In this document: positions 34,400 to 55,676 of the stretch, one piece after another | How the letters are laid out: each line of letters begins with the position of its first letter | How positions within the stretch are numbered: the first letter of the stretch is position 1 | Assembly (NCBI GenBank): GCA_034717495.1 | Contig: JAYELL010000025.1 | Span: 25,900-89,899, forward strand | From: Chloroflexota bacterium | Lineage (GTDB): Bacteria; Chloroflexota; Anaerolineae; JAAEKA01 | Direction: 5' to 3' | Length of the DNA: 64,000 nucleotides | Notes under the pieces: model-generated | Told to the model about the DNA's origin: nothing | Seen by the model: the letters and a program-made list of their open reading frames with translations, nothing else | Databases searched by the model: none | Position numbers and translations under genes: made by a program

Positions 34400-36574
34400 T
34401 TAATCAACTGCTTCCAGTAGCTTCGCTGCTTCCCAGGCCACCAGCCCACCCTCCAGAACCATCACGTTCTCGTAGCCCTCGCTTCGTAGTTTCTGGGCTG
34501 CCCGGGTACTGCGACGGCCAGTTTGGCACGTCAGCACGACCGGACGATCCGACGGGATTTCGACCCCGTTCATCAAAATCTGGGGCAACGGCAGAAGCTC
34601 AGCCTGGGGAACATGTGCTCGACGGTACTCCCTCGGTTCCCTTACGTCCAGGACCAGGGGTGGACCCTCGCTGCTCAGCTCTTTCCACAGATCCGCGGGA
34701 GCGATGGTGGGAATCGAGCTAGCGGGAACAGCGGTGTGGAGCGCAGGATCCACCGGCAGCGTGCGTTTCGGGAGGTTTTGGCATTCTTTGAAGACCCGAA
34801 CCTCACATTCATAGATACATATGGCAGGATCCAACACCTTATGGAAAAGGTATCCCAGGGCTCCATCCTCATCCAGGATATGGTCCGTTCCAACCATGTC
34901 AATGAAATCGACCGATTCCATCAACTCCAGTACCGGTTCTCTAACTCGAACGAAGAAGACATCGCCGCCCATATCCCGGTAGATGCGCACGACATTTTCC
35001 AGCATGTGAATGCCGCTGATATCGATCTCGTTCACGCTGTGCATGCGGAGGACGAGATAGCGCTGACCAGGATGGGCGTCCAGATTCTCGATAATCGCAT
35101 CCTCTATGTTGTTGGCTGCGCCAAAATAGATGTCGCCCATGATCTCCAGCATACCCAGTTGAGGGCAGGCAGGTCGTGCTTCGCTTCCGGAACTACTGAC
35201 CTCCTCAACCATGTGCTGATAGCTCTCATCGGGCACGACCGAGCGAACCTGGGGTACACTTGTGCGCCAAAGGTAGAAGGCCAGGGACATCAGGATGCCT
35301 GTTAAAACGGCAAATTGAAGGGGAAGCAACAGGGTCGCAAGCAGGGTCGCAAGCATTATGATCTTGTCCCCCTGGGTGCCTTGCCAGATGCGACTGATCT
35401 CAGCGCGATCGATCATACCCAACGCTGTCACGATCAAGACAGCTGCCAGCGCTGTGCGGGGCACATAGGTGGCCATCGGAGCCACCGCCAGCATGATGAC
35501 CATGACAAGAAGCCCGGAGATTACTGAAGCCACCTGTGAGCGCGCCCCTGACTCGAAGTTTACGGCGGAACGGGTGAATGAACCAGAACATGGATAGCCA
35601 GAAAAGAAACCGCACGCGATATTGGCGAGACCCTGCCCGATGAACTCCTGATTGCTGTCCAATCGCTGCCCGGTCTGGCTGGCGATAGAGCGCGAGATGG
35701 ACATAGCTTCAATCAAACCGATAACCGACACGGCCAGCGCACCGGTTGAGAGATCGGCGATCAACTCAAAATTAAAGATCGGCGGAACAGCGAACTGCGG
35801 CAACGTGCGTGGCAATTCGCCCAGCACCCTGACTCCTTGTTGGTCCGCACCCGATAGGGCCACGACCACTGAGGCCGCTATCATGCCGAGCAGGGGTGCC
35901 GGCAGCTTGGGCCAGAATCGTCGTATCAACAGGATCAAGATCAGCGTGCCGATACCCAGGAGGATGGTCTGGGCATGCGTTTCTGGCAGGTGGATGATAA
36001 TTGCCCCGGAGGTCGTGATCAGGCTGGGAGAACTGGGAATATTCAGGCCCAACAGGTGACTCAGCTGACTGACACAGATTAGTATTCCCGCACCGGCAGT
36101 AAAGCCAACAACCACGGAATCTGACACAAAGTTTACGAGAACGCCAAGCCCTGCCAGGCCCATCACGAGGCGAAAGACCCCTATCATGACCGCCATCAGG
36201 GCCGCTGCCGCCACATATTCCTGCGGTCCGGCCACGGCGAGAGGCAGCAAGACCGAAAGAGCCAACAAGGACGATGTGTTGGTGGGGCCTGTATGGAGTT
36301 GATGGGATGACCCCCAGAGCGCGCCGACGATAGCTGCGACGACGGCTGTGTACAGGCCGACTTGTGGTGGCAAGTCGGCAACCAGCGCAAATACGATGGC
36401 TTGTGGCACCAACACCACAGCCACCGTTAAACCAGCGATGAAATCGGGGCGAAAATTGCTGCGATCGTATGATCGGAGGATACGAGCGGGTTGGAAAAAG
36501 AAGGAGGACGCCTTGCCCAGACTTGCCAGGAGCGACTTATCCAGAGGTCGGCGCTGGGCCACACTACCTTCCAC
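34400..36574 (-). CDS. SulP-family anion transporter fused to STAS and C-terminal rhodanese domains
   Basis: SulP TM core, STAS region (YLVLRMHSVNEIDISGIHMLENV), rhodanese (LVLDVREPREY...LTCQTGRRS active-site Cys loop). Confidence 0.8.
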   Translation of the reverse strand: MEGSVAQRRPLDKSLLASLGKASSFFFQPARILRSYDRSNFRPDFIAGLTVAVVLVPQAIVFALVADLPPQVGLYTAVVAAIVGALWGSSHQLHTGPTNTSSLLALSVLLPLAVAGPQEYVAAAALMAVMIGVFRLVMGLAGLGVLVNFVSDSVVVGFTAGAGILICVSQLSHLLGLNIPSSPSLITTSGAIIIHLPETHAQTILLGIGTLILILLIRRFWPKLPAPLLGMIAASVVVALSGADQQGVRVLGELPRTLPQFAVPPIFNFELIADLSTGALAVSVIGLIEAMSISRSIASQTGQRLDSNQEFIGQGLANIACGFFSGYPCSGSFTRSAVNFESGARSQVASVISGLLVMVIMLAVAPMATYVPRTALAAVLIVTALGMIDRAEISRIWQGTQGDKIIMLATLLATLLLPLQFAVLTGILMSLAFYLWRTSVPQVRSVVPDESYQHMVEEVSSSGSEARPACPQLGMLEIMGDIYFGAANNIEDAIIENLDAHPGQRYLVLRMHSVNEIDISGIHMLENVVRIYRDMGGDVFFVRVREPVLELMESVDFIDMVGTDHILDEDGALGYLFHKVLDPAICIYECEVRVFKECQNLPKRTLPVDPALHTAVPASSIPTIAPADLWKELSSEGPPLVLDVREPREYRRAHVPQAELLPLPQILMNGVEIPSDRPVVLTCQTGRRSTRAAQKLRSEGYENVMVLEGGLVAWEAAKLLEAVD

Positions 36575-36817: not shown

Positions 36818-37009
36818 TGAGCAAATTGTAACACAAGGCTTGTGAAATGGGAAGGGTTGAAACCTTGACAAACAGGATGGTTCGATCTAGAATTGCCTCG
36901 CGAGCGAAGGCTCGCATCAGGGTTCCTGATGGCTCTGCCCATCTAGCCACGTTGCAGCCACTGTGAGGGCAATGTCACTGGAAAGTCCTCGTCCCGCATC
37001 GTCCGGTTC

Positions 37010-37798
37010 ATGGTCGTCCAGTTTATTATGTCGGTTAATACATCACCCAGATCTAACAATGTTCAGCAAGAGAACCAGCCTCCTGGTCAAATGCGTGCCA
37101 GCGGCGGTGCTTTGCCTAACCTGCTGCTCTACGTAAATCGTCAGGCGAGCAACCCTTTGCGATATGCTTGGGAACAGGCGATCATGGCACTGATCGGCTG
37201 GATTCCCACGGTTGTGGGGGTTGCATTGCGCTCCGCCCTTTACCGGTTTATTCTGCGCATGGACGGTGTGGCTGCTGTCGAAAACAGTGTGCGGCTGCGT
37301 TTTGCCAGCAATATCAGGTTGGGTGACGGTGTCTATCTGGATCAGGGCAGCTATCTGCATGCAACCCCTGGCGGAATCGAGATTGGTAGCGGTAGTTTCG
37401 TCATGCACGGGGCTGTTTTGCATGTCTACAATTTTCGTGCTTTGCCCCACGCCTTTATTCGTATTGGCGAGGATAGTCTGATTGGCGAATACTGTGTGTT
37501 GCGAGGGCAGGGCGGCATCTCCATTGGTGATCGGGTCTATTTTGCCCCTCAGGTTCAGGTGTTGGCGGTGAATCACAACTACGACGATCCGAAAAGACCG
37601 ATGGTAGATCAGGGCCTCACCGCGGACGGAATTGTGATCGAGGACGATGTTTGGATCGGAGCCGGTGCTATCATCACCGATGGCGTGCATATCGGCAAGC
37701 GTTCAATCGTTGCGGCTGGAGCCGTGGTTACCTCGGACGTGCCGGACCGAACTGTAGTGGGTGGTGTGCCAGCCCGCCCTTTGAAGACCCTGTCCTGA
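37010..37798 (+). CDS. left-handed beta-helix (hexapeptide-repeat) O-acetyltransferase, WcaF/NeuD-like
   Basis: Hexapeptide repeats ([13 protein letters not shown]...[27 protein letters not shown]). Confidence 0.8.
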
Positions 37799-37859
37799 TG
37801 TCGCGAATGGATTATCCACGCACACTGTGCAAAAAAAAGAAGAAATGGGAGATTTCTCC

Positions 37860-39062
37860 ATGACAACACTTTCCGTCGTCATTCCGGCTCTTAACGAAGA
37901 AGACGGCATTGCGGAAATAATGGCGCGGGTGCTGGCGGTTGGTTCCGACCTGGCGTCCATGGGCGTCGATGATCTGGAGTTGATCGTGGTAGATGACGGT
38001 TCCACCGACCGCACCGCTGAGATCGTGGAATCCACACCGGGCGTAAAGCTTGTGCAGCATCCGGTGAACAAAGGTTATGGTGCCGCTCTGAAATCGGGTT
38101 TTCGTTCAGCCGAAGGTGAGTTTTTGGGCTTTCTTGATGCTGATGGCACCTATCCGCCCGAGTATTTCCCTCAGTTGTGCCAGGTTTTGCTGCAAAATGG
38201 CAACGATATTGTCGTGGGGTCGAGAATGGCTGGCGCTGACAGCGATATGCCAATGACCCGCCGTATCGGCAATACCGTTTTTGCCAGCATGATCAGTATT
38301 CTCAGCCGTCAACGGATCACTGATAGCGCCAGCGGTATGCGGGTTTTCCGTCGAGAGGCCCTTGAGAAGCTCTATCCGCTGCCCGATGGCCTCAACTTCA
38401 CACCGATCATGAGTACTCGCGCCCTTCACGAGGATATTCACATGGTGGAGGTGCCGATTCCCTACAGCGAGCGAGTGGGCGATTCCAAGCTTAGCGTCGT
38501 ACGGGATGGAACTCGCTACGTCCAGACCATTACCTGGACGGCGATGAACTACAATCCTGTGCGAATTTTGGGTGGCCTGGGTCTTATTGCACTGGGCCTG
38601 GCAGGCGTGATCGCACTGGTCACCTTCGTTGCCCGGCTTAGCGGGGTGACTGAGGTCGGTCCTATTGGAGCGTTTGCCCTGTTTTCGATGATGATATTGG
38701 CAATGACCGGAGTCAGTCTCTTCAACCTGGGGGCAACTTTCAATTATCTCGTGTCTCTATTTCACCATCGCCCCGTCAAGCAGGGGTTGTTCGGTAAGCC
38801 GATTTTTGATCCATCCCTGGATCGCCATTTTTGGTGGATGGGATTGCTCTTGGGCGTTGCCGGGCTTTTGCTGGGCGTTGCGAGTCTGATTATGGCGCTC
38901 AACGGCTGGCCCGCGGGCAAGATGTGGTTTTACTACCTTCTCAGCGCTGTACTCTTTCTCTTGGGACTCCAGTTTGTCATGTCGTGGATTCTGATGCGGG
39001 TTCTCGAGGAGTTGAGTGAGCGTGATGCGCTGGCAGCTAAGGACCTTGGTACCAAGTTTTAG
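37860..39062 (+). CDS. GT2 polyprenyl-phosphate sugar synthase (DPM1/GtrB-like) with C-terminal TM anchor
   Basis: LSVVIPALNEE, VVDDGSTDRT, DAD motifs; 4 C-terminal TM helices as in GtrB/ArnC. Confidence 0.8.
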   Translation: MTTLSVVIPALNEEDGIAEIMARVLAVGSDLASMGVDDLELIVVDDGSTDRTAEIVESTPGVKLVQHPVNKGYGAALKSGFRSAEGEFLGFLDADGTYPPEYFPQLCQVLLQNGNDIVVGSRMAGADSDMPMTRRIGNTVFASMISILSRQRITDSASGMRVFRREALEKLYPLPDGLNFTPIMSTRALHEDIHMVEVPIPYSERVGDSKLSVVRDGTRYVQTITWTAMNYNPVRILGGLGLIALGLAGVIALVTFVARLSGVTEVGPIGAFALFSMMILAMTGVSLFNLGATFNYLVSLFHHRPVKQGLFGKPIFDPSLDRHFWWMGLLLGVAGLLLGVASLIMALNGWPAGKMWFYYLLSAVLFLLGLQFVMSWILMRVLEELSERDALAAKDLGTKF

Positions 39063-39105: not shown

Positions 39106-40815
39106 ATGACTGAAAAAGACCAACTGAAGCGCAATCTGGGTACTCGCCGGATGCCTGCACTGCGCCCGTCCAGTTTTCCTGATGCCGGTGCCATCGTGGA
39201 GACACTGACCTCGTCAGCACGTCCCCCGGTCGGTGTAGATATTCTGCTCGTCAACCCACCATCACCCGATGGTGGGATATGGATCCGCAGCCAGCATCGG
39301 GTAGGCCGACGCAGCCGGGAGAACATGATATGGCCTCAGATCGGTCTTGCTCAAATGGCTGCCTTGTTGGCCCCAGACTATACTGTCGAGGTCGTTGATG
39401 CCATCGCGAGCAGGATGTCCTGGCAGGAATTCGAACGTTTGCTGGAAGAAAAATATCCCAGGTATTACCTTACTCAGGTTACGGCGCCGACGTTGCGCAA
39501 CGATATGTATGGTGTCTTTCTGGCCAAATCCTTGGGGTCTCAGACGATTGCGTTCGGAACCCACGTCACGCCCATGACCCTCGAGACCATGCGCCCTTTT
39601 CCTGCGCTGGACTTCATTCTGCGCGGCGAACCGGAGGCCACACTACGCGAACTACTGGATACTTTGCAGGATCAGGAACCCAGTGACCCTCACGTCGCCA
39701 AGATGGTGGAAGACACCAGGTTGGCCAGAGGCACCACGGCACGCAAGACCAGGGACAGCGACCTGGAGCTGCAGTTGTCACCGTTCGCGCCTGCCACACT
39801 TGAACGAATAGGGAAGGCAACGACGGCATCGGCCATGGAGTCGCCGCTTGCCGGTATTCTGGGCCTTGCATGGCGGTATGATAATGAGATCATAATCAAC
39901 CGGGATCGCCCCTTTTTTCCCGATCTGGACGATCTGCCCATGCCACTGCACCATCTGTTGCCATATGAAAAGCAGCATATGCCGATGCTGAAGGGCCCAT
40001 TTACGTTCATCGTGACCAGCCGCGGCTGCCCTGCAGGTTGTAAATATTGCATCAAACATGTGTCGTACCAGAACAGCGTTCGCCTGCGCTCGCCAGAGAA
40101 GCTATACGAAGAACTGGTTATCCTTTCAGAACTGGGGATTCACAATGTTCATATGTACGCCGATCTGTTCACGGTCAGCCGCGAGCAAGTTGTAACTTTG
40201 TGCAATCTCATCATCGAAAATGGCTTGAAGGTGACCTGGACCTGCAACAGCCGTGTCGACTTCGTTGACGCGGAAATGTTGCAACTGATGGGGCAAGCCG
40301 GGTGCTTCATGATTTCCTGGGGAATCGAAAGCGCCAATGAGGAGATATTGAAACGGGCTCGCAAGGGCTATCGCAAGGAACAGGCCTACGATGCACTTGT
40401 GTGGGCCAGAGAAGCCGGAATCAAGAATTGGGGCTATTTCATCATTGGACTGCCCGGTGAAACCGAGGAGTCGATCCAGGAAACGATCACGTACAGCAAA
40501 ATGCTGCCCCTTGACATCGCCCTGTTCCACATTGCGGCACCCTATCCTGGCACCCCTTTCTTCTACGATGTGGTGGAGAATGGTTGGTTTCGACCGGGTA
40601 CCAAGTGGGAGGAGGTCGACATGGATCAGTCTACCGTGCTCGACTATAGTAATCTGTCGGCTGAAAGGCTCGAGTATTGGCAGAAGCGTGCCACGCGGGA
40701 ATGGTCCTTCAGGCCGGGCCCGATGTGGACCTTTGTTAAAGGCCTCAATAGCTGGGAGGGGTTCAAGAGCGCCATGAGTATCGGCGTTCAGACGCTTAAG
40801 TACGTATGGAGCTAG
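39106..40815 (+). CDS. B12-binding domain radical SAM enzyme
   Basis: N-terminal cobalamin-binding-like domain (ILLVNPP...), radical SAM CxxxCxxC (TSRGCPAGCKYC); stop 2 nt before next gene. Confidence 0.8.
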   Translation: MTEKDQLKRNLGTRRMPALRPSSFPDAGAIVETLTSSARPPVGVDILLVNPPSPDGGIWIRSQHRVGRRSRENMIWPQIGLAQMAALLAPDYTVEVVDAIASRMSWQEFERLLEEKYPRYYLTQVTAPTLRNDMYGVFLAKSLGSQTIAFGTHVTPMTLETMRPFPALDFILRGEPEATLRELLDTLQDQEPSDPHVAKMVEDTRLARGTTARKTRDSDLELQLSPFAPATLERIGKATTASAMESPLAGILGLAWRYDNEIIINRDRPFFPDLDDLPMPLHHLLPYEKQHMPMLKGPFTFIVTSRGCPAGCKYCIKHVSYQNSVRLRSPEKLYEELVILSELGIHNVHMYADLFTVSREQVVTLCNLIIENGLKVTWTCNSRVDFVDAEMLQLMGQAGCFMISWGIESANEEILKRARKGYRKEQAYDALVWAREAGIKNWGYFIIGLPGETEESIQETITYSKMLPLDIALFHIAAPYPGTPFFYDVVENGWFRPGTKWEEVDMDQSTVLDYSNLSAERLEYWQKRATREWSFRPGPMWTFVKGLNSWEGFKSAMSIGVQTLKYVWS

Positions 40816-40816
40816 C

Positions 40817-42526
40817 TTGAGTCATCAATACGGCGATCCAACCCTGGGCGATGGCGTTGGGCCACACTCGCCGGTCACTCTCTTTCGGCCACTGCCACTG
40901 CTCATTTCGGGGGGCTTGATCATTAGCGCTTTGATAGGTGTTTGGGCAGCCTACGACCGGGAACAAGCCTGGATGCGGTTCTCGCTCATCTCCATCGGTG
41001 TGGCACTGATGCTCGGCATTGCCTGGATGGGTTGGCGGGGACGAATGGATATACTGGGCATCTTTGGCCTGCTCTGTGCACTGCTTGGGGCAGCAATCGG
41101 TGCCTATTTCCTTCTGACCTTCGACTGGGCGGGCAATCAGGGAAAATTTGCGCCGATCCAAGCGGCAGGCCTCTGGCTTCAGGTCCATCGCCCCGCAATC
41201 CCGGTTCCCGAGGATATCAACGCCAATGTGGCTGGTAGCAGTCTGGCGATTCTTCTTCCACTGGGGGCTGTGGGCCTTTTCTGGGGATGGAGTCGCGACA
41301 AGCGTACCGTGGCGATCATCGCTGCCCTGTCGTTGCTCTTCGGGTTTCTGATTCTATTCCTGACGCAGTCCCGAGCAGCCTGGCTCGGACTGGCAGCCGG
41401 CCTGGCTGTGGCCCTCTACCTGGCAGTGCGACCAGGCCTGGAAAACTTCCCGCGCCGGCGTCTGCTGTTGGACCTGGTTGCTTTGGCAGGGGGGCTTCTT
41501 GTCCTTGTCCTCTTCTGGCTGGTGGCATCGAGCCCCACTCTTGCCGAATCGTTGGGCTCGATCGGCGTTGGTGTCAGCCTCACCAATCGCGCCGAGCTCT
41601 GGCGCGACGGGATGAACCTGGTAGCAGATTACCCCTTCACGGGCAGCGGCCTGGGCAGCACCATGATGGTCTACTCCACCTATGGACGGTTGTTGCATGT
41701 CGGATTTATCACCCATATGCACAATCTGTTCTTGCAGATCACCATCGAGCAGGGAATACCCGGGCTTCTTTTTTTTCTGCTGTTGCTTGTCCTGGCCTGG
41801 TGGAGTCTGCTAAGCGCCTACCGGTCGGGTGAAAACCGCTGCTTCTGCGTACCGGTGGCAGCATCCTTGGTCGCCCTGGTGGTGCAAGGCCTTGTCGACG
41901 TTGGTATTTATGCCAGCTACGCGCTTCCGGTTCTTTTCTTGCCCATCGGGTTTGCACTGGCCCTGGGGCAGCCACCCAGGGTACTCCGGCGAAGCAAGAA
42001 TGTCACCCTGGCACTGACGAGTGTATCGATCATCGTCGTGGCAATGTGTGTAGTGTTGATTGTACCTTCCAGTCAGGCTGCATTGCAAGCCAATCTGGGC
42101 GCCGTTGCCCAAACACAGCGGGAACTCTCCGCTTACAGCTGGCCCGAGTGGCCCATTCAGGATGCCCTCAGGCGCTCACCTGATATTGACCTGTCAGCTG
42201 CAATTGCCCGATACAAAGCAGCACTTGATCGTGATCCAAAGAATGCAACCGGCAACCGGCGACTGGGGCAGATTGAGCTTTCAAGAGGCAGGTATGAAGC
42301 GGCCCGATGGTACCTGGAAGCAGCGTATGCGACATCACCTCGTCAATCGGTGACCCGGCATCTGCTGGGCGAGGTATATGCCATCGATGGCGATCTGGAC
42401 CTGGCAACGTCCTTTCTTCGCAGCGTCGACATCGGCCATGGCCAGTTTCAGACCAGGGTATGGTGGTACGAAACTGTCGGCGAGACTGAAGGAGCTCAGC
42501 GGTTACGGGAAGCTGGCGGGTTTTGA
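40817..42526 (+). CDS. WaaL/O-antigen-ligase-family (Wzy_C) membrane protein with C-terminal TPR domain
   Basis: ~11 TM with LTQSRAAWLGLAAGLAVALYL Wzy_C block; C-terminal soluble TPR-like repeats. Confidence 0.7.
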   Translation: MSHQYGDPTLGDGVGPHSPVTLFRPLPLLISGGLIISALIGVWAAYDREQAWMRFSLISIGVALMLGIAWMGWRGRMDILGIFGLLCALLGAAIGAYFLLTFDWAGNQGKFAPIQAAGLWLQVHRPAIPVPEDINANVAGSSLAILLPLGAVGLFWGWSRDKRTVAIIAALSLLFGFLILFLTQSRAAWLGLAAGLAVALYLAVRPGLENFPRRRLLLDLVALAGGLLVLVLFWLVASSPTLAESLGSIGVGVSLTNRAELWRDGMNLVADYPFTGSGLGSTMMVYSTYGRLLHVGFITHMHNLFLQITIEQGIPGLLFFLLLLVLAWWSLLSAYRSGENRCFCVPVAASLVALVVQGLVDVGIYASYALPVLFLPIGFALALGQPPRVLRRSKNVTLALTSVSIIVVAMCVVLIVPSSQAALQANLGAVAQTQRELSAYSWPEWPIQDALRRSPDIDLSAAIARYKAALDRDPKNATGNRRLGQIELSRGRYEAARWYLEAAYATSPRQSVTRHLLGEVYAIDGDLDLATSFLRSVDIGHGQFQTRVWWYETVGETEGAQRLREAGGF

Positions 42527-42656: not shown

Positions 42657-43307
42657 ATGAAAAAACTATTCAGAAACCTTAGAAAATCCAAGCCTTCCTT
42701 GCCTGTGATCGTCGTTTCCGGTTTGCCTCGATCTGGAACGTCGATGATGATGAAAATGTTGGAAGCAGGTGGCCTGACGGTGGTAACCGACCAGATTCGT
42801 ACCGCGGACGAGGATAATCCAAAGGGATACTATGAGTTCGAACGGGTAAAACAGCTTGATAAGGGTGATACATCATGGGTATCCGACGCGCAGGGAAAAG
42901 TGGTCAAAGTAATCTCGGCCTTGTTGGAACACCTGCCACCTGACTATGACTACAACGTAATCTTCCTGCAGCGCAGTATCGAGGAAGTTTTGGCATCCCA
43001 GAAGAGAATGCTGGAACGTCGCGGGGAACCAACCGATCGGGTAAGTGATGAGGAGATGGCCCGCTTGTTTGCCAAGCACACTCAGAAAGTGGATCTGTGG
43101 TTAAACAGTCAGCCGAATATCTCAGTTCTCTATGTAGATTACAACGAGGTGGTGAGTAACCCCCATCAATCCGTAGGTCAGGCGAATCGATTCCTGGGCG
43201 GGCATTTGGATGAGCAAGCGATGATCTCAGCTGTCGATCCTCAACTCTATCGAAATCGGGCAAACCTGAACCAAATCTCAACTCGAGAAGACTCATTGTC
43301 AAAATGA
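42657..43307 (+). CDS. sulfotransferase-family protein (Sulfotransfer_3-like)
   Basis: 5'-PSB-like VVSGLPRSGTSMM near N-terminus, later RSIEEV.. 3'-PB-like block; soluble 216 aa; stop overlaps next start (ATGA). Confidence 0.6.
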   Translation: MKKLFRNLRKSKPSLPVIVVSGLPRSGTSMMMKMLEAGGLTVVTDQIRTADEDNPKGYYEFERVKQLDKGDTSWVSDAQGKVVKVISALLEHLPPDYDYNVIFLQRSIEEVLASQKRMLERRGEPTDRVSDEEMARLFAKHTQKVDLWLNSQPNISVLYVDYNEVVSNPHQSVGQANRFLGGHLDEQAMISAVDPQLYRNRANLNQISTREDSLSK

Positions 43308-43696
43308 ACCAACAGCTTCTGTCGTCATTGTGGCTGATCCTGGTGTCCACGATAGCTGGGGTAGCCGGTCAGGTTTCGCTCAAGCTGGGCATGAGCCAGC
43401 CGGGCGCTGAGGAGACGGTCTCAGAGGGTGTGTTGTCTCTGATAGCTTTGATTCTGCGCACTCCCCTGGTGTGGCTCGGACTGATGTTTTACGGGATAGG
43501 AGCGCTTGCCTGGATCGCCGTCTTGTCTCGTCTGGATCTTAGCGTGGCATACCCCTTTCTTGCCTTAAACTTTGTGTTGATTACTATCATATCCCGCCTG
43601 TTCCTTGGCGAGACTGTGCCCCTCCTTCGATGGGCAGGGATCGGTGTAATCGTAGTTGGTATTCTTCTGGTGGCGCGCAGCACTACGGCGTCATAA
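43304..43696 (+). CDS. 4-TM SMR/EamA-like flippase subunit (ArnE/ArnF/GtrA-like)
   Basis: 130 aa, 4 TM, EamA-like signature (LALNFVLITIISRLFLGE). Confidence 0.6.
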   Translation: MNQQLLSSLWLILVSTIAGVAGQVSLKLGMSQPGAEETVSEGVLSLIALILRTPLVWLGLMFYGIGALAWIAVLSRLDLSVAYPFLALNFVLITIISRLFLGETVPLLRWAGIGVIVVGILLVARSTTAS

Positions 43697-45233
43697 AAAC
43701 AAAGTGCACGAATCGCTTAGAAAACGCCACAACCGCTCCAAAGCTGGTACTTTGGTTTCCCTTTGTCTGCTGCTGGCAATTGCCGTGCCCTGGCTGGCTG
43801 GCACTGCCAAGGTATCGGCTGACCAACCAGTGATCTGGTCCAAACCGGTCAACTTATCCCAATCGGACGAGAGCTCGGTTCACCCGGCCATTGTCGCCGA
43901 CAGCATGGGGAATATCCACCTCTTTTGGAGTGAAGAGGTGGGTGGGGAACCGATGCTGCAGGACGAAATGGCCCGGCCTGGTAATACGATCCTCTATACT
44001 CGCTGGGACGGCCAATCATGGATCGAACCAAGGGATGTTCTGTACGTGCGGGGTGAATACCTTGGTGACTATGTTTCGGTCGCAATCGATGACAACAACC
44101 GGCTCCATGCAGTGTGGACGGGACTGGATAACATTTACTACAGTTCGGCGCCGGCGGCTGTAGCTGAGACAGCCCAGTCGTGGAGCAAACCGGTGGTGGT
44201 TGGAACCGGCAGCGCCCGCTCCGCCTTCGAGTCTGCTGTTGCTGTTGATTCACAAGGTGTTATTCATGTTGCCTATGGCGCCCGACGCGATGTGCCGGGA
44301 GTCAACTACGTGCAATCGAGCAACGGCGGCGAGACCTGGTCGGCGCCAGTGACATTGTCACTTCCCCTGGATCGTTTGGAGAGTGGCTATTCGCAGGTGC
44401 GCTTGGTGGTAGACAGTGCAGACCGAATCCATGCTACCTGGACAACCTTCCAGAGACAAGGCTTTGGCCAAGGTGTCTATCATAGTCGCAGCACAGATGG
44501 TGGTCTTACATGGAATACGCCCTACCGGCTCGCTTATCGAGAGGATGACGATATTTTCGTGGAGTGGCCCTATCTCACCGAGTTTGCCGACCAGGAACTG
44601 CGTGTGATCTTCACCGATGGTGATGGCAAGGGCCGGTTGCAGCGCATATCGACCGACGGGGGCGAAACCTGGGGTGAACCAACGGTCATCCTGACCGAAT
44701 TGGAAGGCATTAACGGCTATATCATTTCTCTGCTCGATGCCGCCGAGCAACCCCACTTGATCGCAAACATGCGTACCCGGTCTGACGGCACCGTCGGCCT
44801 GTTTTATGCCCCCGGCGCCGGGGGAGGCTGGCAACCGACTGTTCCGATCGCAACCGATCTACCCTACGGCCCCTCATCACACTATCCTGCAGCCGCCGTT
44901 CGCCTGGGCAATGAGATACACATCGTGTGGACCCAGTTGCGACGGGGTGAGATATGGCATATGAAGGGGGAGGTCTCCGGGGTTGAACCTCTTCCGGTGA
45001 TGGAGAGGCTTCCGCCACAAGAAGTTGTGCAGCCATCGCCTACGATTAGCATCTCTACACCAACCCCAGAACCGCTGGAAACGGTGGCACCATCCCGGGA
45101 GCGGGGCGTTGCCGGGCCGACGCCCGCGCCCGTTGCACCGCCATCGCCGCTCGGCGCAGTGCTACCCGGTATAACACTTTCGCTGCTCCTGGTGCTTGGT
45201 GTGATCGTTTGGAAGGGTGTTCGCGCCAGATAG
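43656..45233 (+). CDS. BNR/Asp-box repeat (sialidase-fold) exported protein with C-terminal TM anchor
   Basis: Asp-box repeats SNGGETWSAP, STDGGLTWNTP, STDGGETWGEP; signal peptide; C-terminal hydrophobic anchor; true start likely downstream of 43696 (non-ATG). Confidence 0.65.
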   Translation: MVFFWWRAALRRHKNKVHESLRKRHNRSKAGTLVSLCLLLAIAVPWLAGTAKVSADQPVIWSKPVNLSQSDESSVHPAIVADSMGNIHLFWSEEVGGEPMLQDEMARPGNTILYTRWDGQSWIEPRDVLYVRGEYLGDYVSVAIDDNNRLHAVWTGLDNIYYSSAPAAVAETAQSWSKPVVVGTGSARSAFESAVAVDSQGVIHVAYGARRDVPGVNYVQSSNGGETWSAPVTLSLPLDRLESGYSQVRLVVDSADRIHATWTTFQRQGFGQGVYHSRSTDGGLTWNTPYRLAYREDDDIFVEWPYLTEFADQELRVIFTDGDGKGRLQRISTDGGETWGEPTVILTELEGINGYIISLLDAAEQPHLIANMRTRSDGTVGLFYAPGAGGGWQPTVPIATDLPYGPSSHYPAAAVRLGNEIHIVWTQLRRGEIWHMKGEVSGVEPLPVMERLPPQEVVQPSPTISISTPTPEPLETVAPSRERGVAGPTPAPVAPPSPLGAVLPGITLSLLLVLGVIVWKGVRAR

Positions 45234-45251: not shown

Positions 45252-46031
45252 ATGCATCATTTCACTGAGCTGTTTGGGTATCGTGACCTGCTCTGGCTAT
45301 GGACCTTGCGAGAAGTCAGGGTACGGTATAAACAATCTTTCCTGGGCGTTGCCTGGGCGATCATTCAACCGCTGGCCCTGACTGTCGTCTTTACCGTCGT
45401 TTTTTCTTTTCTGCTTAAGATCGATACCGGGGATGTGCCCTATCCGGTTTTTGCCTATACTGGACTGGTCCCCTGGACGTTCTTTGCAACCTCGCTGGCT
45501 TTCGGGATTCCCAGCCTTGTCAACAATATGAATCTGGTCACAAAAATCTACTTTCCCCGGGAGATACTGCCCCTTGCCAGTATCGGAGCCGCCTTTGTAG
45601 ATTTTCTGATCGCCTGCGCGATTCTGGCCGGGTTGATGTTGATTTATCGGGTCTTTCCAGGAATCGAGGCCTTGTGGCTCGGCCCGCTGCTCTTGCTGCA
45701 GATCATTCTGAGTATCGGTGTGATTTTGCTGGGCGCTGCGCTCATTGTGTTCTTCCGCGATATTCGTTTCGTCGTACCCTTATTGACGCAGGTCTGGATG
45801 TATGCTACGCCAATCATCTACCCGGTGGATTTCGTACCTGAACAGTTGCGACCCTTCTATTTTCTGAATCCAATGGCCGGTATCATCGACGGATATCGAC
45901 GGGTGCTGATTTATGGTGAGGCGCCCAATATGCAAGCGCTGACATTGGCCACGATAGTGTCCGTGATACTGTTTGTGGTAGGATACCTGGTTTTCAAGCG
46001 AACAGAACCGGTATTTGCGGATATCATATGA
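45252..46031 (+). CDS. wzm: ABC-2 type polysaccharide exporter permease
   Basis: ABC-2 membrane protein (YKQSFLGVAWAIIQP...). Confidence 0.85.
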   Translation: MHHFTELFGYRDLLWLWTLREVRVRYKQSFLGVAWAIIQPLALTVVFTVVFSFLLKIDTGDVPYPVFAYTGLVPWTFFATSLAFGIPSLVNNMNLVTKIYFPREILPLASIGAAFVDFLIACAILAGLMLIYRVFPGIEALWLGPLLLLQIILSIGVILLGAALIVFFRDIRFVVPLLTQVWMYATPIIYPVDFVPEQLRPFYFLNPMAGIIDGYRRVLIYGEAPNMQALTLATIVSVILFVVGYLVFKRTEPVFADII

Positions 46032-47275
46032 CCGATCAACTTCCATTGGGGTCTGTAATTTGTGATAAGGTTTCCAAACGCTATCGACTGGGTGCGTTTG
46101 GATCATTGCGCGGCACGGTGTCATCCCTTTTCGAGCGGCGGAGTGAGGAAGAAGAGGCACAGCGTACTCTGTGGGCATTGCAGGATGTTAGCTTTCGGTT
46201 GCAGCCTGGCGAGTCACTGGGCTTGCTGGGTCCCAATGGTGCCGGAAAGACGACCACCCTGAAGCTCCTGTCGAAGATTACCAGGCCAACATCGGGCAAC
46301 ATTACACTGCTTGGGCGCTCCTCATCCTTAATCGAGTTGGGGGCGGGATTCCATCCGGAACTTACTGGCAAGGAGAATATCTTTCTGAATGGAGCGATTC
46401 TGGGATTGAGTCGCCACGAGATTCAACGGCGTCTTGATGAGATTATTGCATTCTCTGAATTGGAAAGGTTCATCGATACCCCTGTCAAACGTTACTCTTC
46501 AGGCATGTATGTCCGTCTTGGCTTTGCCGTGGCTGCCTACGTCGAGCCGAATGTGCTTCTGGTTGATGAAGTGTTGGCAGTGGGAGATATTAGCTTTCGG
46601 CAGCGCTGCATCAAACGAATGAAGGAGTTGCAGGAATCGGGCACGACAGTTATCTTTGTCTCTCACAACATGCATCTGGTTCGCAACATGTGTCAACGCT
46701 CGTTGCTCCTGGTTCATGGACAGATCCAGTCAGAGGGTCCCACAGATGATGTGATCGCAGACTATGAACGGCTAATCATGGGAACTGCCGAATTGGCGAA
46801 TGACAAGTCCCAGGACAAGGACCAGTCCCAGGTGTTGTCCGATGTCATTGTGCTGAATGTCGACGTAGCTCCCCTGACACCAAACGATAGGAACCTCATC
46901 GATTCGCATCAGTCTGGTGTAGTGACAATTCGTTACCGTACCCAGGCGCCCCGGGAAATCGGGCGTATCGATGTCCGCGTATTACGCGACGATGGCACAC
47001 TGTGTAGTTCACTTGATGCCAGGGCAGCCGCCAAAAACGATCCTCGATTCCGCCACCTGGATCGGGAAGGTTCGTTTGTCTTGACCTTTTCACCCATGCA
47101 GTTGACTTCAGGCACCTATTTCGTGCTCGTTCGTATTACCGACTCATCCGATGCCCTGGTTATCGCATCCGGACAATCCAAGTTATTTCAGGCCTACGCA
47201 GGCGACCTGCCTTCGCCGCCGGGGGTTTTTGTTCCCTCAGTTGCATGGGACGTCGGGAAAGAGAATCGAAGTTAG
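46028..47275 (+). CDS. wzt: polysaccharide exporter ATP-binding protein with C-terminal extension (Wzt)
   Basis: NBD (GPNGAGKTT, YSSGMYVRLGFA, LLVDEVLAVGD) plus ~170-aa beta-rich C-terminal extension. Confidence 0.8.
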   Translation: MTDQLPLGSVICDKVSKRYRLGAFGSLRGTVSSLFERRSEEEEAQRTLWALQDVSFRLQPGESLGLLGPNGAGKTTTLKLLSKITRPTSGNITLLGRSSSLIELGAGFHPELTGKENIFLNGAILGLSRHEIQRRLDEIIAFSELERFIDTPVKRYSSGMYVRLGFAVAAYVEPNVLLVDEVLAVGDISFRQRCIKRMKELQESGTTVIFVSHNMHLVRNMCQRSLLLVHGQIQSEGPTDDVIADYERLIMGTAELANDKSQDKDQSQVLSDVIVLNVDVAPLTPNDRNLIDSHQSGVVTIRYRTQAPREIGRIDVRVLRDDGTLCSSLDARAAAKNDPRFRHLDREGSFVLTFSPMQLTSGTYFVLVRITDSSDALVIASGQSKLFQAYAGDLPSPPGVFVPSVAWDVGKENRS

Positions 47276-47372
47276 TTGAAAATCCACAGCTTCAGGGGAA
47301 AGACTTTTCGTGACCCACGCAGGGTTTCGCGGAGTCTCGAAATCGGACAAACAGTTCCCGGGTGAGAATCGC

Positions 47373-49109: not shown

Positions 49110-49120
49110 GAAGATGAGTC

Positions 49121-50320
49121 ATGCTCACAGTTAGCGCCATCGTGGTGACCTTCAATCGAGCAGACTATCTTCCCGAGGCGCTTGACAGCATTTTCTCGCA
49201 GGAGATGCCGCCGCTGGAAGTCATTGTCGTCGACGACGGATCCGTTGACGATACGAAGGAAGTCGTTGGCAGCTATGGCGACCGGATTCTGTATGTATGG
49301 CAGGAGAACCAGGGTGTATCCGCTGCGCGGAATCGGGGTCTTTCTGTTGCTCAAGGCGACTTGATCGCCTGGCTTGACTCGGATGATGCCTGGCAGCCTG
49401 CGTTCCTGTCGACCCTTGTGCAGCGCATCGAGCGTGATCCAGGTGTCGATGGCGCCTACAGCGGGAGAGTTTATATCGACAGCGAAGGAAAGGCACTTTC
49501 CCAATCGGTGCGAGTGGAACCGGACGAAGCGTTATATGCCAGTTTGATTGAGGATAACTTCCTCACGACTTCCTCGCTTATCGTTAAACGAAGCTGTTAT
49601 GAATCGGCCGGTCCATTTGACCGTCAGTTCCGTATCGGTGAGGATTACGATATGTGGCTTCGTTTCGCCCGGCGACACAGGATTGTTGGCATGCCGGAAC
49701 CTCTGGTAAGATACAGGGTGCACAGTGGCAATACCGTGGCGGATGCCGACAAATATAAATACTACCGGCTTGCGTTGACCGGGAAGCAGTTTGGTGAACT
49801 GGGCAGTGACCGCGATCAATGGACCGAAGAAGCACGACTTGCCCACGGATTTTCCTTTCGATCCGTTGCCTTCAACTACTTCCAGGCAGGTCAGATGGAC
49901 GAAGGGTGGTACTACCTGCAGCAGGCGATATCGATATATCCGGATATTCTGGAGCGCCTTGACACCTACTACGAAGTGCTCTGCGGAGATCAGCCCTTGG
50001 GTCTGCGAGGCCAGGCGCAATTGTTGGATATCGATGCCAATAGTGCAGATTTGCTAAGACGGTTGGATGCCCTGTTTTACGAAGGTGGCAATACTCTGCA
50101 GCCGCGACGGCCCGCCGCTTACGGCAACGCTTACCTCGCCATGGCCATGCTGAATGATCAGGCTGGCAATTGGTCGCAGGCCCGGCGTTGCATCGCCCGA
50201 GCGATTCGGCACTATCCCGCTTTGCTTGGCCAGCAAGGTGTGTTGCGGCGTTTCGTCAAGTTGTCGGTGGGCCAGTCAGGAGCAGAACTGGGAAGATCGT
50301 TTTTGGATCGGTCGCCCTGA
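49121..50320 (+). CDS. GT2 glycosyltransferase with C-terminal helical/TPR-like domain
   Basis: VSAIVVTFNRADYL, VIVVDDGSVDDT, DSDD motifs. Confidence 0.8.
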   Translation: MLTVSAIVVTFNRADYLPEALDSIFSQEMPPLEVIVVDDGSVDDTKEVVGSYGDRILYVWQENQGVSAARNRGLSVAQGDLIAWLDSDDAWQPAFLSTLVQRIERDPGVDGAYSGRVYIDSEGKALSQSVRVEPDEALYASLIEDNFLTTSSLIVKRSCYESAGPFDRQFRIGEDYDMWLRFARRHRIVGMPEPLVRYRVHSGNTVADADKYKYYRLALTGKQFGELGSDRDQWTEEARLAHGFSFRSVAFNYFQAGQMDEGWYYLQQAISIYPDILERLDTYYEVLCGDQPLGLRGQAQLLDIDANSADLLRRLDALFYEGGNTLQPRRPAAYGNAYLAMAMLNDQAGNWSQARRCIARAIRHYPALLGQQGVLRRFVKLSVGQSGAELGRSFLDRSP

Positions 50321-50359
50321 CGATTGAGTTCGTTGCTGTTGTCGATTGAGAAGAAATCA

Positions 50360-51613: not shown

Positions 51614-51641
51614 AGACCTGGTCAGGAGGCCACCGGAAGTC

Positions 51642-55627: not shown

Positions 55628-55676
55628 GTTTGGTTTGCGATTTCCACTGTCTGCATGACACGTCCGTTGGTCGTGT

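Follow-up and report, generated by a model that had tools for sequence, protein, structure and literature searches.

In the bacteriohopanetetrol cyclitol ether pathway (HpnI/HpnK/HpnJ), the GT2 glycosyltransferase HpnI loads a hexosamine onto a membrane lipid. The sugar is then remodelled by HpnJ, an adjacent radical SAM enzyme of the B12 type with two domains, the proposed reaction being a ring contraction of the glucosamine on the hopanoid-linked sugar (PMC9204698, PMC13459092). Calditol synthase (Cds) of Sulfolobus is a second precedent for a radical SAM enzyme that remodels a sugar on a membrane lipid, genetic evidence supporting that it makes a carbocyclic polyol from the hexose head group of a lipid (PMC13459092). 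HpnJ and BchE are regarded as non-methylases, and AprD4, the radical SAM 1,2-diol dehydratase of apramycin biosynthesis, as a cobalamin-free sugar diol-dehydratase (PMC9204698, PMC12931638). The class-B enzymes GenK and MoeK5 C-methylate sugars, MoeK5 having been implicated in methylation during moenomycin biosynthesis; MoeK5, Fom3 and HpnJ co-localise in a sequence similarity network (PMC9204698).

Here we describe a surface-glycan locus of about 26 kb in the genome of a member of the Anaerolineae (Chloroflexota). It lies within the window, that is, the whole 64-kb stretch of DNA that was analysed, and is headed by four genes encoding an acetyltransferase, a GT2 glycosyltransferase, a radical SAM enzyme and a Wzy_C-family membrane protein with a TPR domain, henceforth Wzy_C-TPR (table 1).

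Table 1. Features of the locus and their positions in the window
Feature	Position	Strand	Basis
Promoter-like site TTGACA-17-TAGAAT, 11/12	36865–36893	+	Consensus match only
Hexapeptide-repeat O-acetyltransferase-like protein, 262 aa	37010–37798	+	Pfam Hexapep, PDB matches
GT2 polyprenyl-phosphate glycosyltransferase (ArnC/DPMS/GtrB/AglJ-like), 411 aa	37827–39062	+	PF00535, NCBIfam, PDB
Radical SAM enzyme, unnamed family near HpnJ, BchE and AprD4	39106–40815	+	Profiles, motifs, AF2 fold
Rossmann-like (B12-binding-like) N-terminal domain, residues ~44–190	39235–39675	+	AF2 model, Foldseek, invariant residues
Low-confidence variable linker between the two domains, residues ~205–250	39718–39855	+	Alignment, pLDDT
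CxxxCxxC [4Fe-4S] motif (C308, C312, C315)	40027–40050	+	Ortholog alignment
GGAG, Shine-Dalgarno-like site for the Wzy_C-TPR gene	40808–40811	+	Read from sequence
Wzy_C (O-antigen-ligase family) membrane protein, C-terminal TPR, 569 aa	40817–42526	+	Pfam, profiles, hydropathy, orthologs
Conserved extracytoplasmic Wzy_C loop, residues 271–313 (DYPFTGSGLG...HVG..H.HNLFLQ..EQG)	41627–41755	+	51 orthologs
Conserved C-terminal TPR domain, residues ~421–551	42077–42469	+	Pfam TPR matches, orthologs
Sulfotransferase, 216 aa	42657–43307	+	PF13469, PF00685
ArnE/ArnF-like small EamA-type membrane protein, 130 aa	43304–43696	+	PF00892; sub-cut-off NCBIfam
BNR_2 beta-propeller protein, N- and C-terminal TM helices, 525 aa	43656–45233	+	Pfam, hydropathy
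Polysaccharide exporter: Wzm (ABC-2 permease) and Wzt (ATPase)	45252–47275	+	Domain profiles
Variable glycan genes	47310–62843	+	Domain profiles

A sequence-only reading of the same DNA had proposed that the radical SAM gene (ATG start, 569 aa) is translationally coupled to the Wzy_C-TPR gene (TTG start), and it placed both reading frames correctly: the single base C (40816) separates the stop codon of the former (TAG, 40813–40815) from the TTG, whose first base thus lies two positions past the last base of the stop. This TTG is the first start codon past an in-frame stop (40775–40777) and the only one 5' of the first TM helix predicted by hydropathy, and starting at either of the next in-frame candidates, codon 34 or codon 39, would truncate that helix. 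Because the GGAG lies 5 nt before the TTG, within the 3' end of the radical SAM coding sequence, coupling is plausible; the one-base abutment, however, is not kept among relatives, in which the first possible start lies anywhere between about 30–60 nt or more before the radical SAM stop, as an overlap, and several hundred nucleotides after it; in most of the closest ones the distance is about 45 nt or less. The pairing is real: both genes run in one direction and are probably co-translated.

Upstream, the promoter-like site sits between the divergent SulP gene (minus strand) and the acetyltransferase gene. The acetyltransferase has a single N-terminal TM helix (residues 57–75, by hydropathy), and its top PDB matches belong to the maltose/galactoside O-acetyltransferase family. 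The GT2 matches PF00535 with 122 bits, has four C-terminal TM helices by hydropathy and scores below the cut-offs of all its NCBIfam matches (AglJ, 127 bits; Dol-P-hexose transferase, 111; ArnC, 92; PgfS, 90); among solved structures, ArnC (9hwj) covers residues 14–330, comprising the catalytic, juxtamembrane and TM parts, and further matches are DPMS (5mlz) and GtrB (5ekp).

Relatives of the radical SAM enzyme are present in 402 species genomes, and 80 loci were examined, among which the enzyme is 62–80% identical. The acetyltransferase gene lies upstream of the radical SAM gene in 61 of 65 species genomes (94%) and the GT2 gene in 64 of 70 (91%), a Wzy_C-TPR ortholog lies downstream in 51 of 63 species-level genomes (81%), and all four genes occur together in 38 of 53 species genomes, with median identities of 72% for the radical SAM enzyme, 67% for the acetyltransferase, 59% for the GT2 and 41% for Wzy_C-TPR. 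When the search was run in reverse, with the TPR motif of the ligase-like protein as seed, a radical SAM gene was found directly upstream in 27 of 39 loci. Exceptions are the 12 of 63 genomes in which the ligase-like gene does not adjoin the radical SAM gene, four Wzy_C-TPR loci without a radical SAM gene for more than 4 kb upstream, and loci L090 and L131, in which the order is permuted (Wzy_C-TPR, acetyltransferase, GT2, radical SAM). Acetyltransferase, GT2, radical SAM enzyme and Wzy_C-TPR, in this order, are a conserved four-gene block. Because it is conserved across species, the adjacency of the radical SAM and ligase-like genes is far beyond chance, and the pairing pointed out earlier, which the sequence-only reading would have given up had it failed to recur elsewhere, was borne out in both directions. 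Since the compared loci come from one class and the enzyme is so similar among them, part of this synteny may be inherited rather than selected. The sequence-only reading had noted the ligase as partner and had missed the acetyltransferase and the GT2, which are more tightly linked. Because these two are the tightest partners and the GT2 is of the polyprenyl-phosphate type, the synteny suggests that the substrate would be a lipid-linked sugar and not a sugar nucleotide.

The locus as a whole combines a very conserved core with a variable part. Sulfotransferase orthologs (54–73% identity) directly follow the ligase-like gene in a subset of loci. In the 52 loci whose flank spans 8 kb or more, an ArnE/F-like gene is found downstream in 27, the BNR_2 protein in 20, Wzm in 20 and Wzt in 14. 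The 130-aa ArnE/F-like protein scores 48 bits against ArnE and 47 against ArnF, both under the cut-off, and is a candidate flippase for a lipid-linked sugar; Wzt has a weak Wzt_C match below the cut-off. The variable genes encode a pyruvyltransferase–GT2 fusion, a GT2–TPR protein, three GT4 enzymes, a second Wzy_C protein (54194–55627), a GT2, a PMT_2 GT-C (56655–58109), a SAM methyltransferase (58106–58855), a GT2, a GT4 and a Bac_transf initiating phosphoglycosyltransferase (61353–62843). They are absent or rare in related loci: none of the 52 loci has a counterpart of the GT4 or pyruvyltransferase genes, and PMT_2 homologs occur in 2 of 84 related loci, a PMT_2 GT-C being present also in locus L004.

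The radical SAM enzyme matches Radical_SAM (PF04055) with 97 bits over residues 302–461. Its best curated profiles are HpnJ (194 bits against a cut-off of 578, aligned only to residues 244–567) and BchE (136 against 481); ApyD is the third-best NCBIfam match (128 bits), and PhpK (113 bits), Sden_1168 (109), AprD4 (108 against 500) and MgmA (102) score lower. In the curated profile search it fell short of every family cut-off by a wide margin, and none of 71 distant representatives attains one. The best solved relative is AprD4 (PDB 6FD2; sequence E 3e-25, 21% identity), which is also the top full-length Foldseek match to the AF2 model (target TM-score 0.81); it is followed by the cobalamin radical SAM enzymes MgmA, TsrM, CysS, OxsB and TokK, MgmA (9ccb) being second-best by sequence and by fold alike. 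Because the cut-offs are missed so widely, transfer of function from HpnJ or AprD4 is weak; these nearest characterised families work on lipid- or aglycone-attached sugars, the substrate of AprD4 being paromamine. Many family members are labelled 'anaerobic magnesium-protoporphyrin IX monomethyl ester cyclase' by JGI, and this name and the two top profiles would fit a BchE or HpnJ ortholog acting in bacteriochlorophyll or hopanoid biosynthesis; however, the scores are far under the equivalog cut-offs, which none of the 71 distant representatives reaches either, no tetrapyrrole or hopanoid gene was seen among the roughly 45 window ORFs scanned, and the conserved context is glycan biosynthesis. 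We find such orthology hardly credible and consider it refuted to the extent that profiles and gene context can decide. The sequence-only reading had named clustering with BchE-type enzymes as grounds for abandoning its proposal, and this clustering was found in part, with BchE among the best profiles but no family cut-off reached.

From its sequence, the enzyme looks active and two-domain. The CxxxCxxC motif is invariant in 30 of 30 orthologs and at least 90% conserved in the 71 distant representatives, and the AF2 model has a pLDDT of 88.7, falling below 50 at residues 212–237 of the linker, whose length differs between orthologs by as much as about 80 residues. The Rossmann domain includes an invariant 28-residue β1–α1 loop (residues 51–78), and G151, which closes β4, and G174–E175, which opens α5, are conserved in orthologs and distant representatives; a glycine on β4 and a Gly-Glu at the start of α5 are defined cobalamin-binding motifs (PMC9204698). 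The earlier description as B12-binding draws weak profile support, PF02310 reaching 17.7 bits (E 0.0033) under a cut-off of 32.1, with a precomputed match on some family members, but a class-B-type Rossmann domain at the N terminus, which probably holds cobalamin, is consistent with the predicted fold and the conserved motifs. No cobalamin riboswitch was found in the 64-kb window.

This architecture and these motifs would also suit a cobalamin-dependent class-B methyltransferase whose C-methyl-branched sugar is incorporated into the glycan and passed on at the ligation step, the chemistry that the sequence-only reading had emphasised. The lesser matches to P- and C-methyltransferases (PhpK, Sden_1168, MgmA), the sugar C-methylation by GenK and MoeK5 and the network position of MoeK5 and Fom3 beside HpnJ point the same way (PMC9204698). 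Against it, the leading profiles are those of non-methylases and the leading structure is that of a dehydratase, the tryptophan that follows the Cys motif in TokK is missing (C315-I316-K317; motif from PMC9204698), and the locus already has a separate SAM-dependent methyltransferase. C-methylation is not favoured, and we judge it improbable.

Radical SAM enzymes are also known to modify proteins and peptides, as MgmA/Mmp10 does with methyl-coenzyme M reductase and ApyD/PoyC with peptides. The ranks of ApyD among the profiles and of MgmA among the structures would be compatible with an enzyme acting on, for example, a surface protein, the ligase-like protein itself or a RiPP. However, neither a precursor-peptide gene nor an RRE or SPASM domain was seen in the window ORF list and Pfam matches, the intergenic gaps are too short to hide an ORF, and it is a lipid-carrier glycosyltransferase and an acetyltransferase that are conserved as the enzyme's partners, so that we give a protein or peptide substrate very little credence.

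Wzy_C-TPR matches Wzy_C (PF04932) with 84 bits over residues 172–321 and, above their cut-offs, TPR_16 and TPR_19 within residues 458–508, and it matches no equivalog model, the best being IctB with 49 bits against 366. Its two most conserved blocks in 51 orthologs are the external loop and the TPR domain, and at each of R258, D271, T275, G276, G278, H294, H300, H302, E311, Q312 and G313 at least 85% of these orthologs have the same residue. By hydropathy and the positive-inside rule, the TPR domain would lie outside the membrane, brought there by an additional TM helix (residues 398–416). By its profile matches the protein is an unclassified Wzy_C-family member, and the earlier name WaaL was too specific; the window contains two further Wzy_C genes, and the Chloroflexota are generally regarded as a phylum without LPS. 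All characterised Wzy_C enzymes known to us take undecaprenyl-diphosphate-linked donors, and there would be no precedent for one that works with a monophosphate-linked unit. The usual consumer of polyprenyl-phosphate sugars is a PMT_2-type GT-C, and the presence of such an enzyme in the window counts against Wzy_C-TPR as their user.

Most likely, the radical SAM enzyme radically modifies a polyprenyl-phosphate-linked sugar, and the ligase-like enzyme uses or accepts the product outside the membrane; given the glycan-locus context, the radical-modified sugar envisaged earlier was a reasonable reading. The mechanism of the four-gene block as a whole, from GT2 loading to Wzy_C-TPR joining, we propose tentatively, at slightly less than an even chance, and its substrate, chemistry, cobalamin use, topology and role for Wzy_C-TPR we infer. 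The ArnC/DPMS-like GT2 would put a sugar on polyprenyl phosphate at the cytoplasmic membrane face, and SAM cleavage at the [4Fe-4S] cluster would lead to abstraction of a hydrogen atom from it; as the outcome, a skeletal rearrangement of the HpnJ kind or a dehydration of the AprD4 kind seems somewhat likelier than C-methylation. The membrane-anchored acetyltransferase would O-acetylate the product, a sulfotransferase may add sulfate in some genomes, and the ArnE/F-like transporter would move the product to the outer face. There, Wzy_C-TPR would link this conserved unit, serving as acceptor or anchor or else as the transferred unit, to a variable polymer that the initiating transferase and the GT2 and GT4 enzymes assemble on another carrier and that Wzm/Wzt exports.

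GT2, small flippase and GT-C form a well-established three-component logic, which suggests a different division of labour: acetyltransferase, GT2, radical SAM enzyme and ArnE/F-like protein would make and flip a modified polyprenyl-phosphate sugar that a PMT_2-type GT-C adds to the polymer as a side branch, as in the Gtr and Arn systems, and Wzy_C-TPR would ligate or polymerise the main polymer, its gene lying beside the radical SAM gene only through a shared operon. The PMT_2 genes of the window and of L004 and the looser linkage of the Wzy gene accord with side-branch decoration, whereas the rarity of PMT_2 homologs in loci that retain Wzy_C-TPR, the persistence of the Wzy gene with the other three despite permuted order and a TPR domain as conserved as the core genes argue against it. 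We regard side-branch decoration as rather unlikely, if deserving of consideration. In the preferred mechanism, the block suggests radical chemistry on a lipid-linked cell-surface sugar by a very conserved, unnamed Anaerolineae radical SAM family.

The enzyme shares its two-domain cobalamin/radical SAM architecture with GenK and MoeK5, of which neither a curated profile nor a solved structure is among its listed matches, and its profile ranking favours non-methylases. Cds is alike in remodelling a lipid-linked sugar and differs in being archaeal and in acting on a tetraether lipid. AprD4 has the same combination of Rossmann domain and radical SAM barrel and a sugar substrate, but it binds no cobalamin (PMC12931638), whereas the window family retains the Gly and Gly-Glu motifs, and it acts on a soluble pseudodisaccharide together with a partner reductase. 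With the HpnI/HpnK/HpnJ system the locus shares a GT2 next to the radical SAM enzyme; however, the latter scores one third of the HpnJ cut-off, the GT2 is ArnC/DPMS-like and not HpnI, an acetyltransferase takes the place of the deacetylase HpnK, and the lipid would be polyprenyl phosphate rather than a hopanoid. The ArnC/ArnD/ArnE-ArnF/ArnT system for lipid A aminoarabinose offers the same sequence of a GT2-made polyprenyl-phosphate sugar, on-lipid modification at the cytoplasmic face, flipping by a small EamA/SMR-type protein and use outside, paralleled here by the ArnC alignment of the GT2 and the ArnE/F-like protein, but its on-lipid step is deformylation instead of the proposed radical SAM reaction and acetylation, and its outside enzyme is the GT-C ArnT and not a Wzy_C protein. 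For a Wzy_C ligase in a locus with Wzm-Wzt, the comparison is the scheme of ABC-dependent S-layer glycosylation. Wzy_C-TPR resembles the WaaL/PglL/WsaB-type ligases in its Wzy_C domain, its conserved external Arg and His-Asn loop and its many TM helices, and the locus resembles theirs in its initiating phosphoglycosyltransferase, Wzm/Wzt exporter and methyltransferase; what sets the window protein apart is the extra TM helix, the conserved TPR domain, predicted to be external, and the tight linkage to a radical SAM enzyme.

The radical SAM gene and the gene downstream of it each comprise 569 codons, and the TAG stop of the former (40813–40815) is followed by one base and then by the TTG at 40817 that starts the latter, which bears out a sequence-only reading of this DNA that had placed the stop 2 nt ahead of the ligase start. 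This TTG is the earliest start codon past an in-frame stop (40775–40777) and the sole one to precede the first predicted membrane helix; GGAG lies 5 nt ahead of it. The domain content assigned in the same reading was likewise recovered: the first protein matches the radical SAM model PF04055 with 97.1 bits (cut-off 29.5), which makes it a member of the radical SAM superfamily, and the second matches the Wzy_C model PF04932 with 84.3 bits (against 31.7) and carries C-terminal TPR repeats. Among orthologs, the interval from the radical SAM stop to the first possible ligase start ranges from overlaps to gaps of several hundred nucleotides, and the closest relatives mostly have a short one. Because this spacing varies so widely, we rejected translational coupling as a conserved feature of the pair.

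An identical copy of the radical SAM protein is recorded in a Chloroflexota metagenome-assembled genome (MAG), and more than 100 relatives with 71–82% identity come from Anaerolineae, Caldilineales, and Candidatus Amarolinea. Scanning one genome per species, we found a relative in 402 genomes; the best 80 of these are nearly all Anaerolineae-class MAGs, and the protein is 62–80% identical across different orders of that class. One locus (L075, 66% identity) bears the label Candidatus Margulisiibacteriota, pointing to mis-binning or horizontal transfer. In an alignment of 30 orthologs with a mean column identity of 75%, the cluster motif C308-x3-C312-x2-C315 (CxxxCxxC) is invariant, as are the 28 residues of the loop that follows the first strand (51–78), G151, and R173-G174-E175-P176-E177. 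Three further cysteines, C366, C380, and C400, are also invariant in the family, with C366 and C400 reaching at least 90% conservation in distant representatives too.

We then compared the protein with curated NCBI profiles. The highest scores were obtained with HpnJ (194 bits), BchE (136), ApyD (128), and PhpK (113), followed by Sden_1168 (109), AprD4 (108), and MgmA (102); the cut-offs for those families are 360–750 bits, and the protein falls far below every one. It does not reach the equivalog level for HpnJ (TIGR03471; 193.7 vs. 577.6 bits, with only residues 244–567 aligning), BchE (TIGR02026; 136.5 vs. 481 bits), or the AprD4 family (NF033070; 108.1 vs. 500 bits), and membership in the HpnJ, BchE, AprD4, ApyD, PhpK, or MgmA families was rejected on the curated cut-offs. 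When 1.84 billion cluster representatives were scanned in full with HMMER, the family proper corresponded to one or two 50% clusters, with a few intermediates at 40–49% identity and, beyond these, a very large cloud at ~30–36%. None of 71 distant representatives reaches any curated cut-off, and an alignment of the 40–49% identical relatives held no stretch conserved enough to seed a metagenome scan. Because the profile scores lie so far below the cut-offs and the HMMER scan gives this cluster picture, we assign the protein, by profile scores and by the fold ranking described below, to an unnamed family in the neighborhood of HpnJ, BchE, and AprD4.

JGI names many members of this family BchE ([quoted passage not shown]) or "YgiQ," and NCBI calls one MiaB; these names look like misannotations. 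That the protein is BchE or HpnJ, as such annotation and the two top-ranking profiles would have it, is unlikely: the scores are those of an outsider to both families, and neither the scanned ORFs of the window nor those related loci that had gene calls showed any hopanoid genes (shc, hpnH, hpnI, hpnK). The automatic BchE annotation of many family members is wrong and could give false phototrophy signals in surveys of Chloroflexota metagenomes. The closest outgroup (P0123, P0132, P0140, P0271–P0273, and P0275) comprises full-length proteins with 40–62% identity that do not have the CxxxCxxC cysteines and carry, for example, TSRGGLADHHHG or NRGYPAIPNN at that position; judged by sequence, they look like radical-SAM-derived proteins without a cluster. 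At one outgroup locus (L158, 10001–11671) a NusG-like gene, GDSL/SGNH esterases, and an AMP-binding enzyme lie nearby, and not the glycan block. With the cluster cysteines missing and the gene context different, the outgroup was dropped as a functional guide.

A first structure model built from the 30 close orthologs had a pLDDT of 52.7 and was discarded; the model used is an AF2 prediction from 71 diverse representatives (pLDDT 88.7). It consists of a five-stranded Rossmann domain (residues ~44–190), a radical SAM barrel in which β/α elements alternate over residues 299–476, as in a partial TIM barrel, and a helical C-terminal cap. The linker between the first two domains (residues ~205–250) differs in length by up to ~80 residues among orthologs, is often rich in Pro, Ser, and Arg, and has very low model confidence. 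Foldseek matched many solved radical SAM enzymes in the PDB at probability 1.0, with AprD4, a radical SAM diol-dehydratase acting on paromamine, at the top (E 2e-26, target TM-score 0.81) and the cobalamin enzymes MgmA, TsrM, CysS, OxsB, and TokK ranking below it; the leaders of a PDB sequence search agree with this ranking.

The label "B12-binding" given to the protein in the sequence-only reading stands on weaker ground than its radical SAM assignment: a Rossmann domain is predicted, but the cobalamin-binding model PF02310 matches residues 75–184 at 17.7 bits, short of its 32.1-bit cut-off. A precomputed PF02310 match exists for some members of the family. Base-off cobalamin binding in OxsB, TsrM, and TokK is associated with a G-x-S/T-x-X motif after strand 3, a Gly on strand 4, and a Gly-Glu starting helix 5 (PMC9204698). 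In the AF2 model G151 lies at the end of strand 4 and G174-E175 at the start of helix 5; all three residues are invariant in the family, and in distant relatives G151 and E175 show at least 90% conservation. After strand 3 the protein reads Q-V-T126-A-P, with the Thr present and the leading Gly absent, and it does not have the TokK-type Trp after the Cys motif. The loop between β1 and α1 of the Rossmann domain, PPSPDGGIWIRSQHRVGRRSRENMIWPQ, contains H64, and its counterpart in solved cobalamin radical SAM enzymes, the "His loop," is much shorter than these 28 residues. The whole-chain fold matches include cobalamin binders, and the best of them is the cobalamin-free AprD4; HpnJ and BchE are members of the cobalamin class that do not methylate, and AprD4 binds no cobalamin (PMC9204698, PMC12931638). 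An Rfam scan of the 64-kb window found nothing, and hence no cobalamin riboswitch. Taken on its sequence and modeled fold, the protein is likely to bind cobalamin.

The Wzy_C-TPR protein is polytopic with ~11 hydrophobic segments, and its Wzy_C signature sits in a 75-residue external loop (residues 239–313). We aligned 51 orthologs taken downstream of radical SAM genes and found that R258, H294, H300, H302, E311, Q312, and G313 in this loop each occur in at least 85% of these proteins. Two parts are strongly conserved, the external loop (DYPFTGSGLG...HVG..H.HNLFLQ..EQG) and the C-terminal TPR domain, and the N-terminal helices are divergent. The signature loop is followed by three more helices, an Arg/Lys-rich loop (residues 385–397), and an extra helix (residues 398–416); because of the positive-inside rule applied to this loop and helix, the TPR domain should lie outside the cell in the predicted topology. 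The protein matches none of the curated ligase, polymerase, or oligosaccharyltransferase models (best IctB, 49 vs. 366 bits), and no WaaL equivalog model either. WaaL proper transfers an undecaprenyl-diphosphate-linked glycan to lipid A-core. Because Chloroflexota are generally regarded as lacking LPS, the acceptor of the Wzy_C-TPR protein must differ from lipid A-core.

The pair lies within a run of co-oriented genes. Upstream are a hexapeptide acetyltransferase (AT) and a family 2 glycosyltransferase (GT2) that matches PF00535 with 122 bits and aligns over residues 14–330 with ArnC (9hwj). Its catalytic domain is followed by juxtamembrane and C-terminal transmembrane helices, and the homology extends through that region, which places it among the polyprenyl-phosphate GT2 enzymes of the ArnC/DPMS/GtrB/AglJ type; it reaches no equivalog cut-off. 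Four C-terminal transmembrane helices are predicted, the number that Pyrococcus DPMS also has, and the match to 5mlz covers the catalytic domain of GT2 only. No Wzx-type flippase was seen among the operon and glycan-locus genes of the window. The divergent SulP permease and the sulfotransferase gene of the operon hint that the glycan is sulfated, and in some of the related loci a sulfotransferase ortholog (54–73% identity) comes directly after the ligase gene. The pyruvyltransferase-GT2 fusion suggests a pyruvylated polymer; pyruvylated secondary cell wall polymers anchor SLH-domain proteins.

Features of the radical SAM/Wzy_C-TPR locus and its surroundings (window positions)
Feature	Position	Strand	Remarks
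ORF of 554 aa	13752-15416	-	No Pfam match
Wzy_C-family gene	15292-16791	-	No TPR; overlaps or abuts the 554-aa ORF
SulP-family sulfate permease	34400-36574	-	Fused to STAS and rhodanese; divergent from the operon
Promoter-like site, strong	36865-36893	+	Precedes run of co-oriented, closely spaced genes
AT	37010-37798	+	Hexapeptide O-acetyltransferase-like; N-terminal TM helix
GT2	37827-39062	+	Aligns with ArnC, also DPMS and GtrB; four C-terminal TM helices
Radical SAM enzyme	39106-40815	+	PF04055
β1-α1 loop (residues 51-78)	39256-39339	+	Invariant in 30 orthologs
Inter-domain linker	39718-39855	+	
C366, C380, C400	40201-40203, 40243-40245, 40303-40305	+	
Wzy_C-TPR	40817-42526	+	O-antigen-ligase family and TPR
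Sulfotransferase	42657-43307	+	
ArnE/F-like protein	43304-43696	+	Small membrane protein
BNR propeller	43656-45233	+	BNR_2, 525 aa; membrane-anchored, hydrophobic helices at both ends
Wzm and Wzt	45252-47275	+	
Variable genes	47310-62843	+	Pyruvyltransferase-GT2, several GT2/GT4, second Wzy_C, PMT_2 GT-C, methyltransferase, initiating Bac_transf enzyme
Pyruvyltransferase-GT2 fusion	47310-49109	+	Polysaccharide pyruvyltransferase domain fused to GT2 domain
Wzy_C-family gene	54194-55627	+	No TPR

To determine co-occurrence, we searched the window proteins with tblastn against 80 species loci, in which the radical SAM protein has a median identity of 72%, and counted only loci with a long enough flank. 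GT2 is encoded directly upstream of the radical SAM gene in 64 of 70 loci (median identity 59%), AT upstream in 61 of 65 (67%), and a Wzy_C-TPR protein within 3.5 kb downstream in 51 of 63 (41%); all four genes occur together in 38 of 53. In the reverse direction, a metagenome scan with the ligase's conserved TPR motif as its seed gave 73 loci, and in 27 of the 39 with at least 400 nt upstream the radical SAM gene lies directly upstream of the ligase gene. The order is permuted to Wzy, AT, GT2, radical SAM in two loci (L090 and L131), and four loci of the reverse scan have no radical SAM gene within more than 4 kb upstream of the ligase. A few metagenome loci duplicate genome loci (e.g., L003 = L104, L081 = L109, L040 = L151, and L060 = L116). 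The pairing of radical SAM enzyme and ligase proposed from the sequence is thus correct and co-conserved in both directions, and the ligase is indeed a partner, but the partner set is larger than that proposal, since it includes AT and GT2 upstream. Because all loci belong to one class, part of this synteny is inherited.

Downstream, among the 52 loci whose flank on that side is 8 kb or longer, we found homologs of the ArnE/F-like protein (27/52), the BNR protein (20/52; 23–31% identity only), Wzm (20/52), and Wzt (14/52), and none of the window's own GT4 and pyruvyltransferase genes (0/52). The PMT_2 GT-C was rejected as a conserved partner, having a homolog in 2 of 84 loci. A conserved core of AT, GT2, radical SAM enzyme, Wzy_C-TPR, and often ArnE/F is therefore located ahead of variable polymer genes. 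In a Caldilinea MAG (L004, 1–2525), NTP_transferase, GHMP kinase, SIS, and HAD-domain genes, a set typical of nucleotide-activated heptose synthesis, lie a few kb upstream of the block and could hint at the sugar used there.

The substrate of the radical SAM enzyme is probably a lipid-linked sugar and not a sugar nucleotide, because the AT and GT2 encoded upstream are membrane-associated and the GT2 group makes polyprenyl-phosphate sugars; a protein or peptide substrate is unlikely beside such neighbors. In the pathway we propose, GT2 would load a sugar onto polyprenyl phosphate, the radical SAM enzyme would abstract a hydrogen atom from the sugar and remodel it, AT and in some cases the sulfotransferase would tailor it, and the ArnE/F-like protein would flip the tailored unit. 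Outside, the Wzy_C-TPR protein would link the conserved unit with the variable polymer that Wzm/Wzt export. The main rival keeps every step through flipping and has a GT-C add the product as a side branch, leaving the Wzy_C-TPR protein as ligase of the main polymer only; a PMT_2 GT-C is at hand in the window, and the gene found next to the radical SAM gene across loci is that of the Wzy_C-TPR protein. For the radical step we have a weak preference for rearrangement or dehydration, because the nearest characterized relatives carry out those reactions, over the C-methylation that the sequence-only reading had put forward, which we do not favor.

A more specific version of the proposed pathway can be drawn, to which as a whole we give little credence. 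The radical SAM enzyme would perform an HpnJ/Cds-type ring contraction or other skeletal rearrangement on a polyprenyl-phosphate-linked hexose, by which the labile glycosyl phosphate would become a stable phosphate lipid with a carbocyclic (cyclitol) head, to be acetylated afterwards. Once flipped, this lipid would be no donor but a conserved membrane acceptor or anchor, to which the Wzy_C-TPR protein would attach the variable polymers exported by Wzm/Wzt. If this is true, the lipid would do the job of lipid A-core in bacteria that are generally considered to have no LPS.

The filamentous Anaerolineae abound in activated sludge, sediments, and hot springs, and to our knowledge almost nothing is known of their cell envelope. 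The conservation of the radical SAM enzyme marks a conserved envelope component whose synthesis requires radical chemistry, probably on a lipid-linked sugar. If the pathway proposed here is true, glycoconjugate biosynthesis would gain an additional type of reaction, and the role of a WaaL-like ligase in bacteria generally considered to have no LPS would become a testable matter. In the literature searched, no paper connects a radical SAM enzyme to an O-antigen (Wzy_C) ligase or describes the four-gene block, which is a real, conserved module found in hundreds of species, new relative to that literature, whose function we infer. The proposed route resembles the Arn pathway, in which a polyprenyl-phosphate sugar is modified on the lipid and then flipped by ArnE/F, and the HpnI/K/J system, in which a sugar attached to a lipid by a GT2 is subsequently remodeled by a B12-type radical SAM enzyme; among archaea, calditol synthase offers a parallel (PMC13459092). 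It differs from these systems in the combination of components, in a Wzy_C-family partner that replaces the GT-C, and in the unnamed family to which its radical SAM enzyme is assigned.
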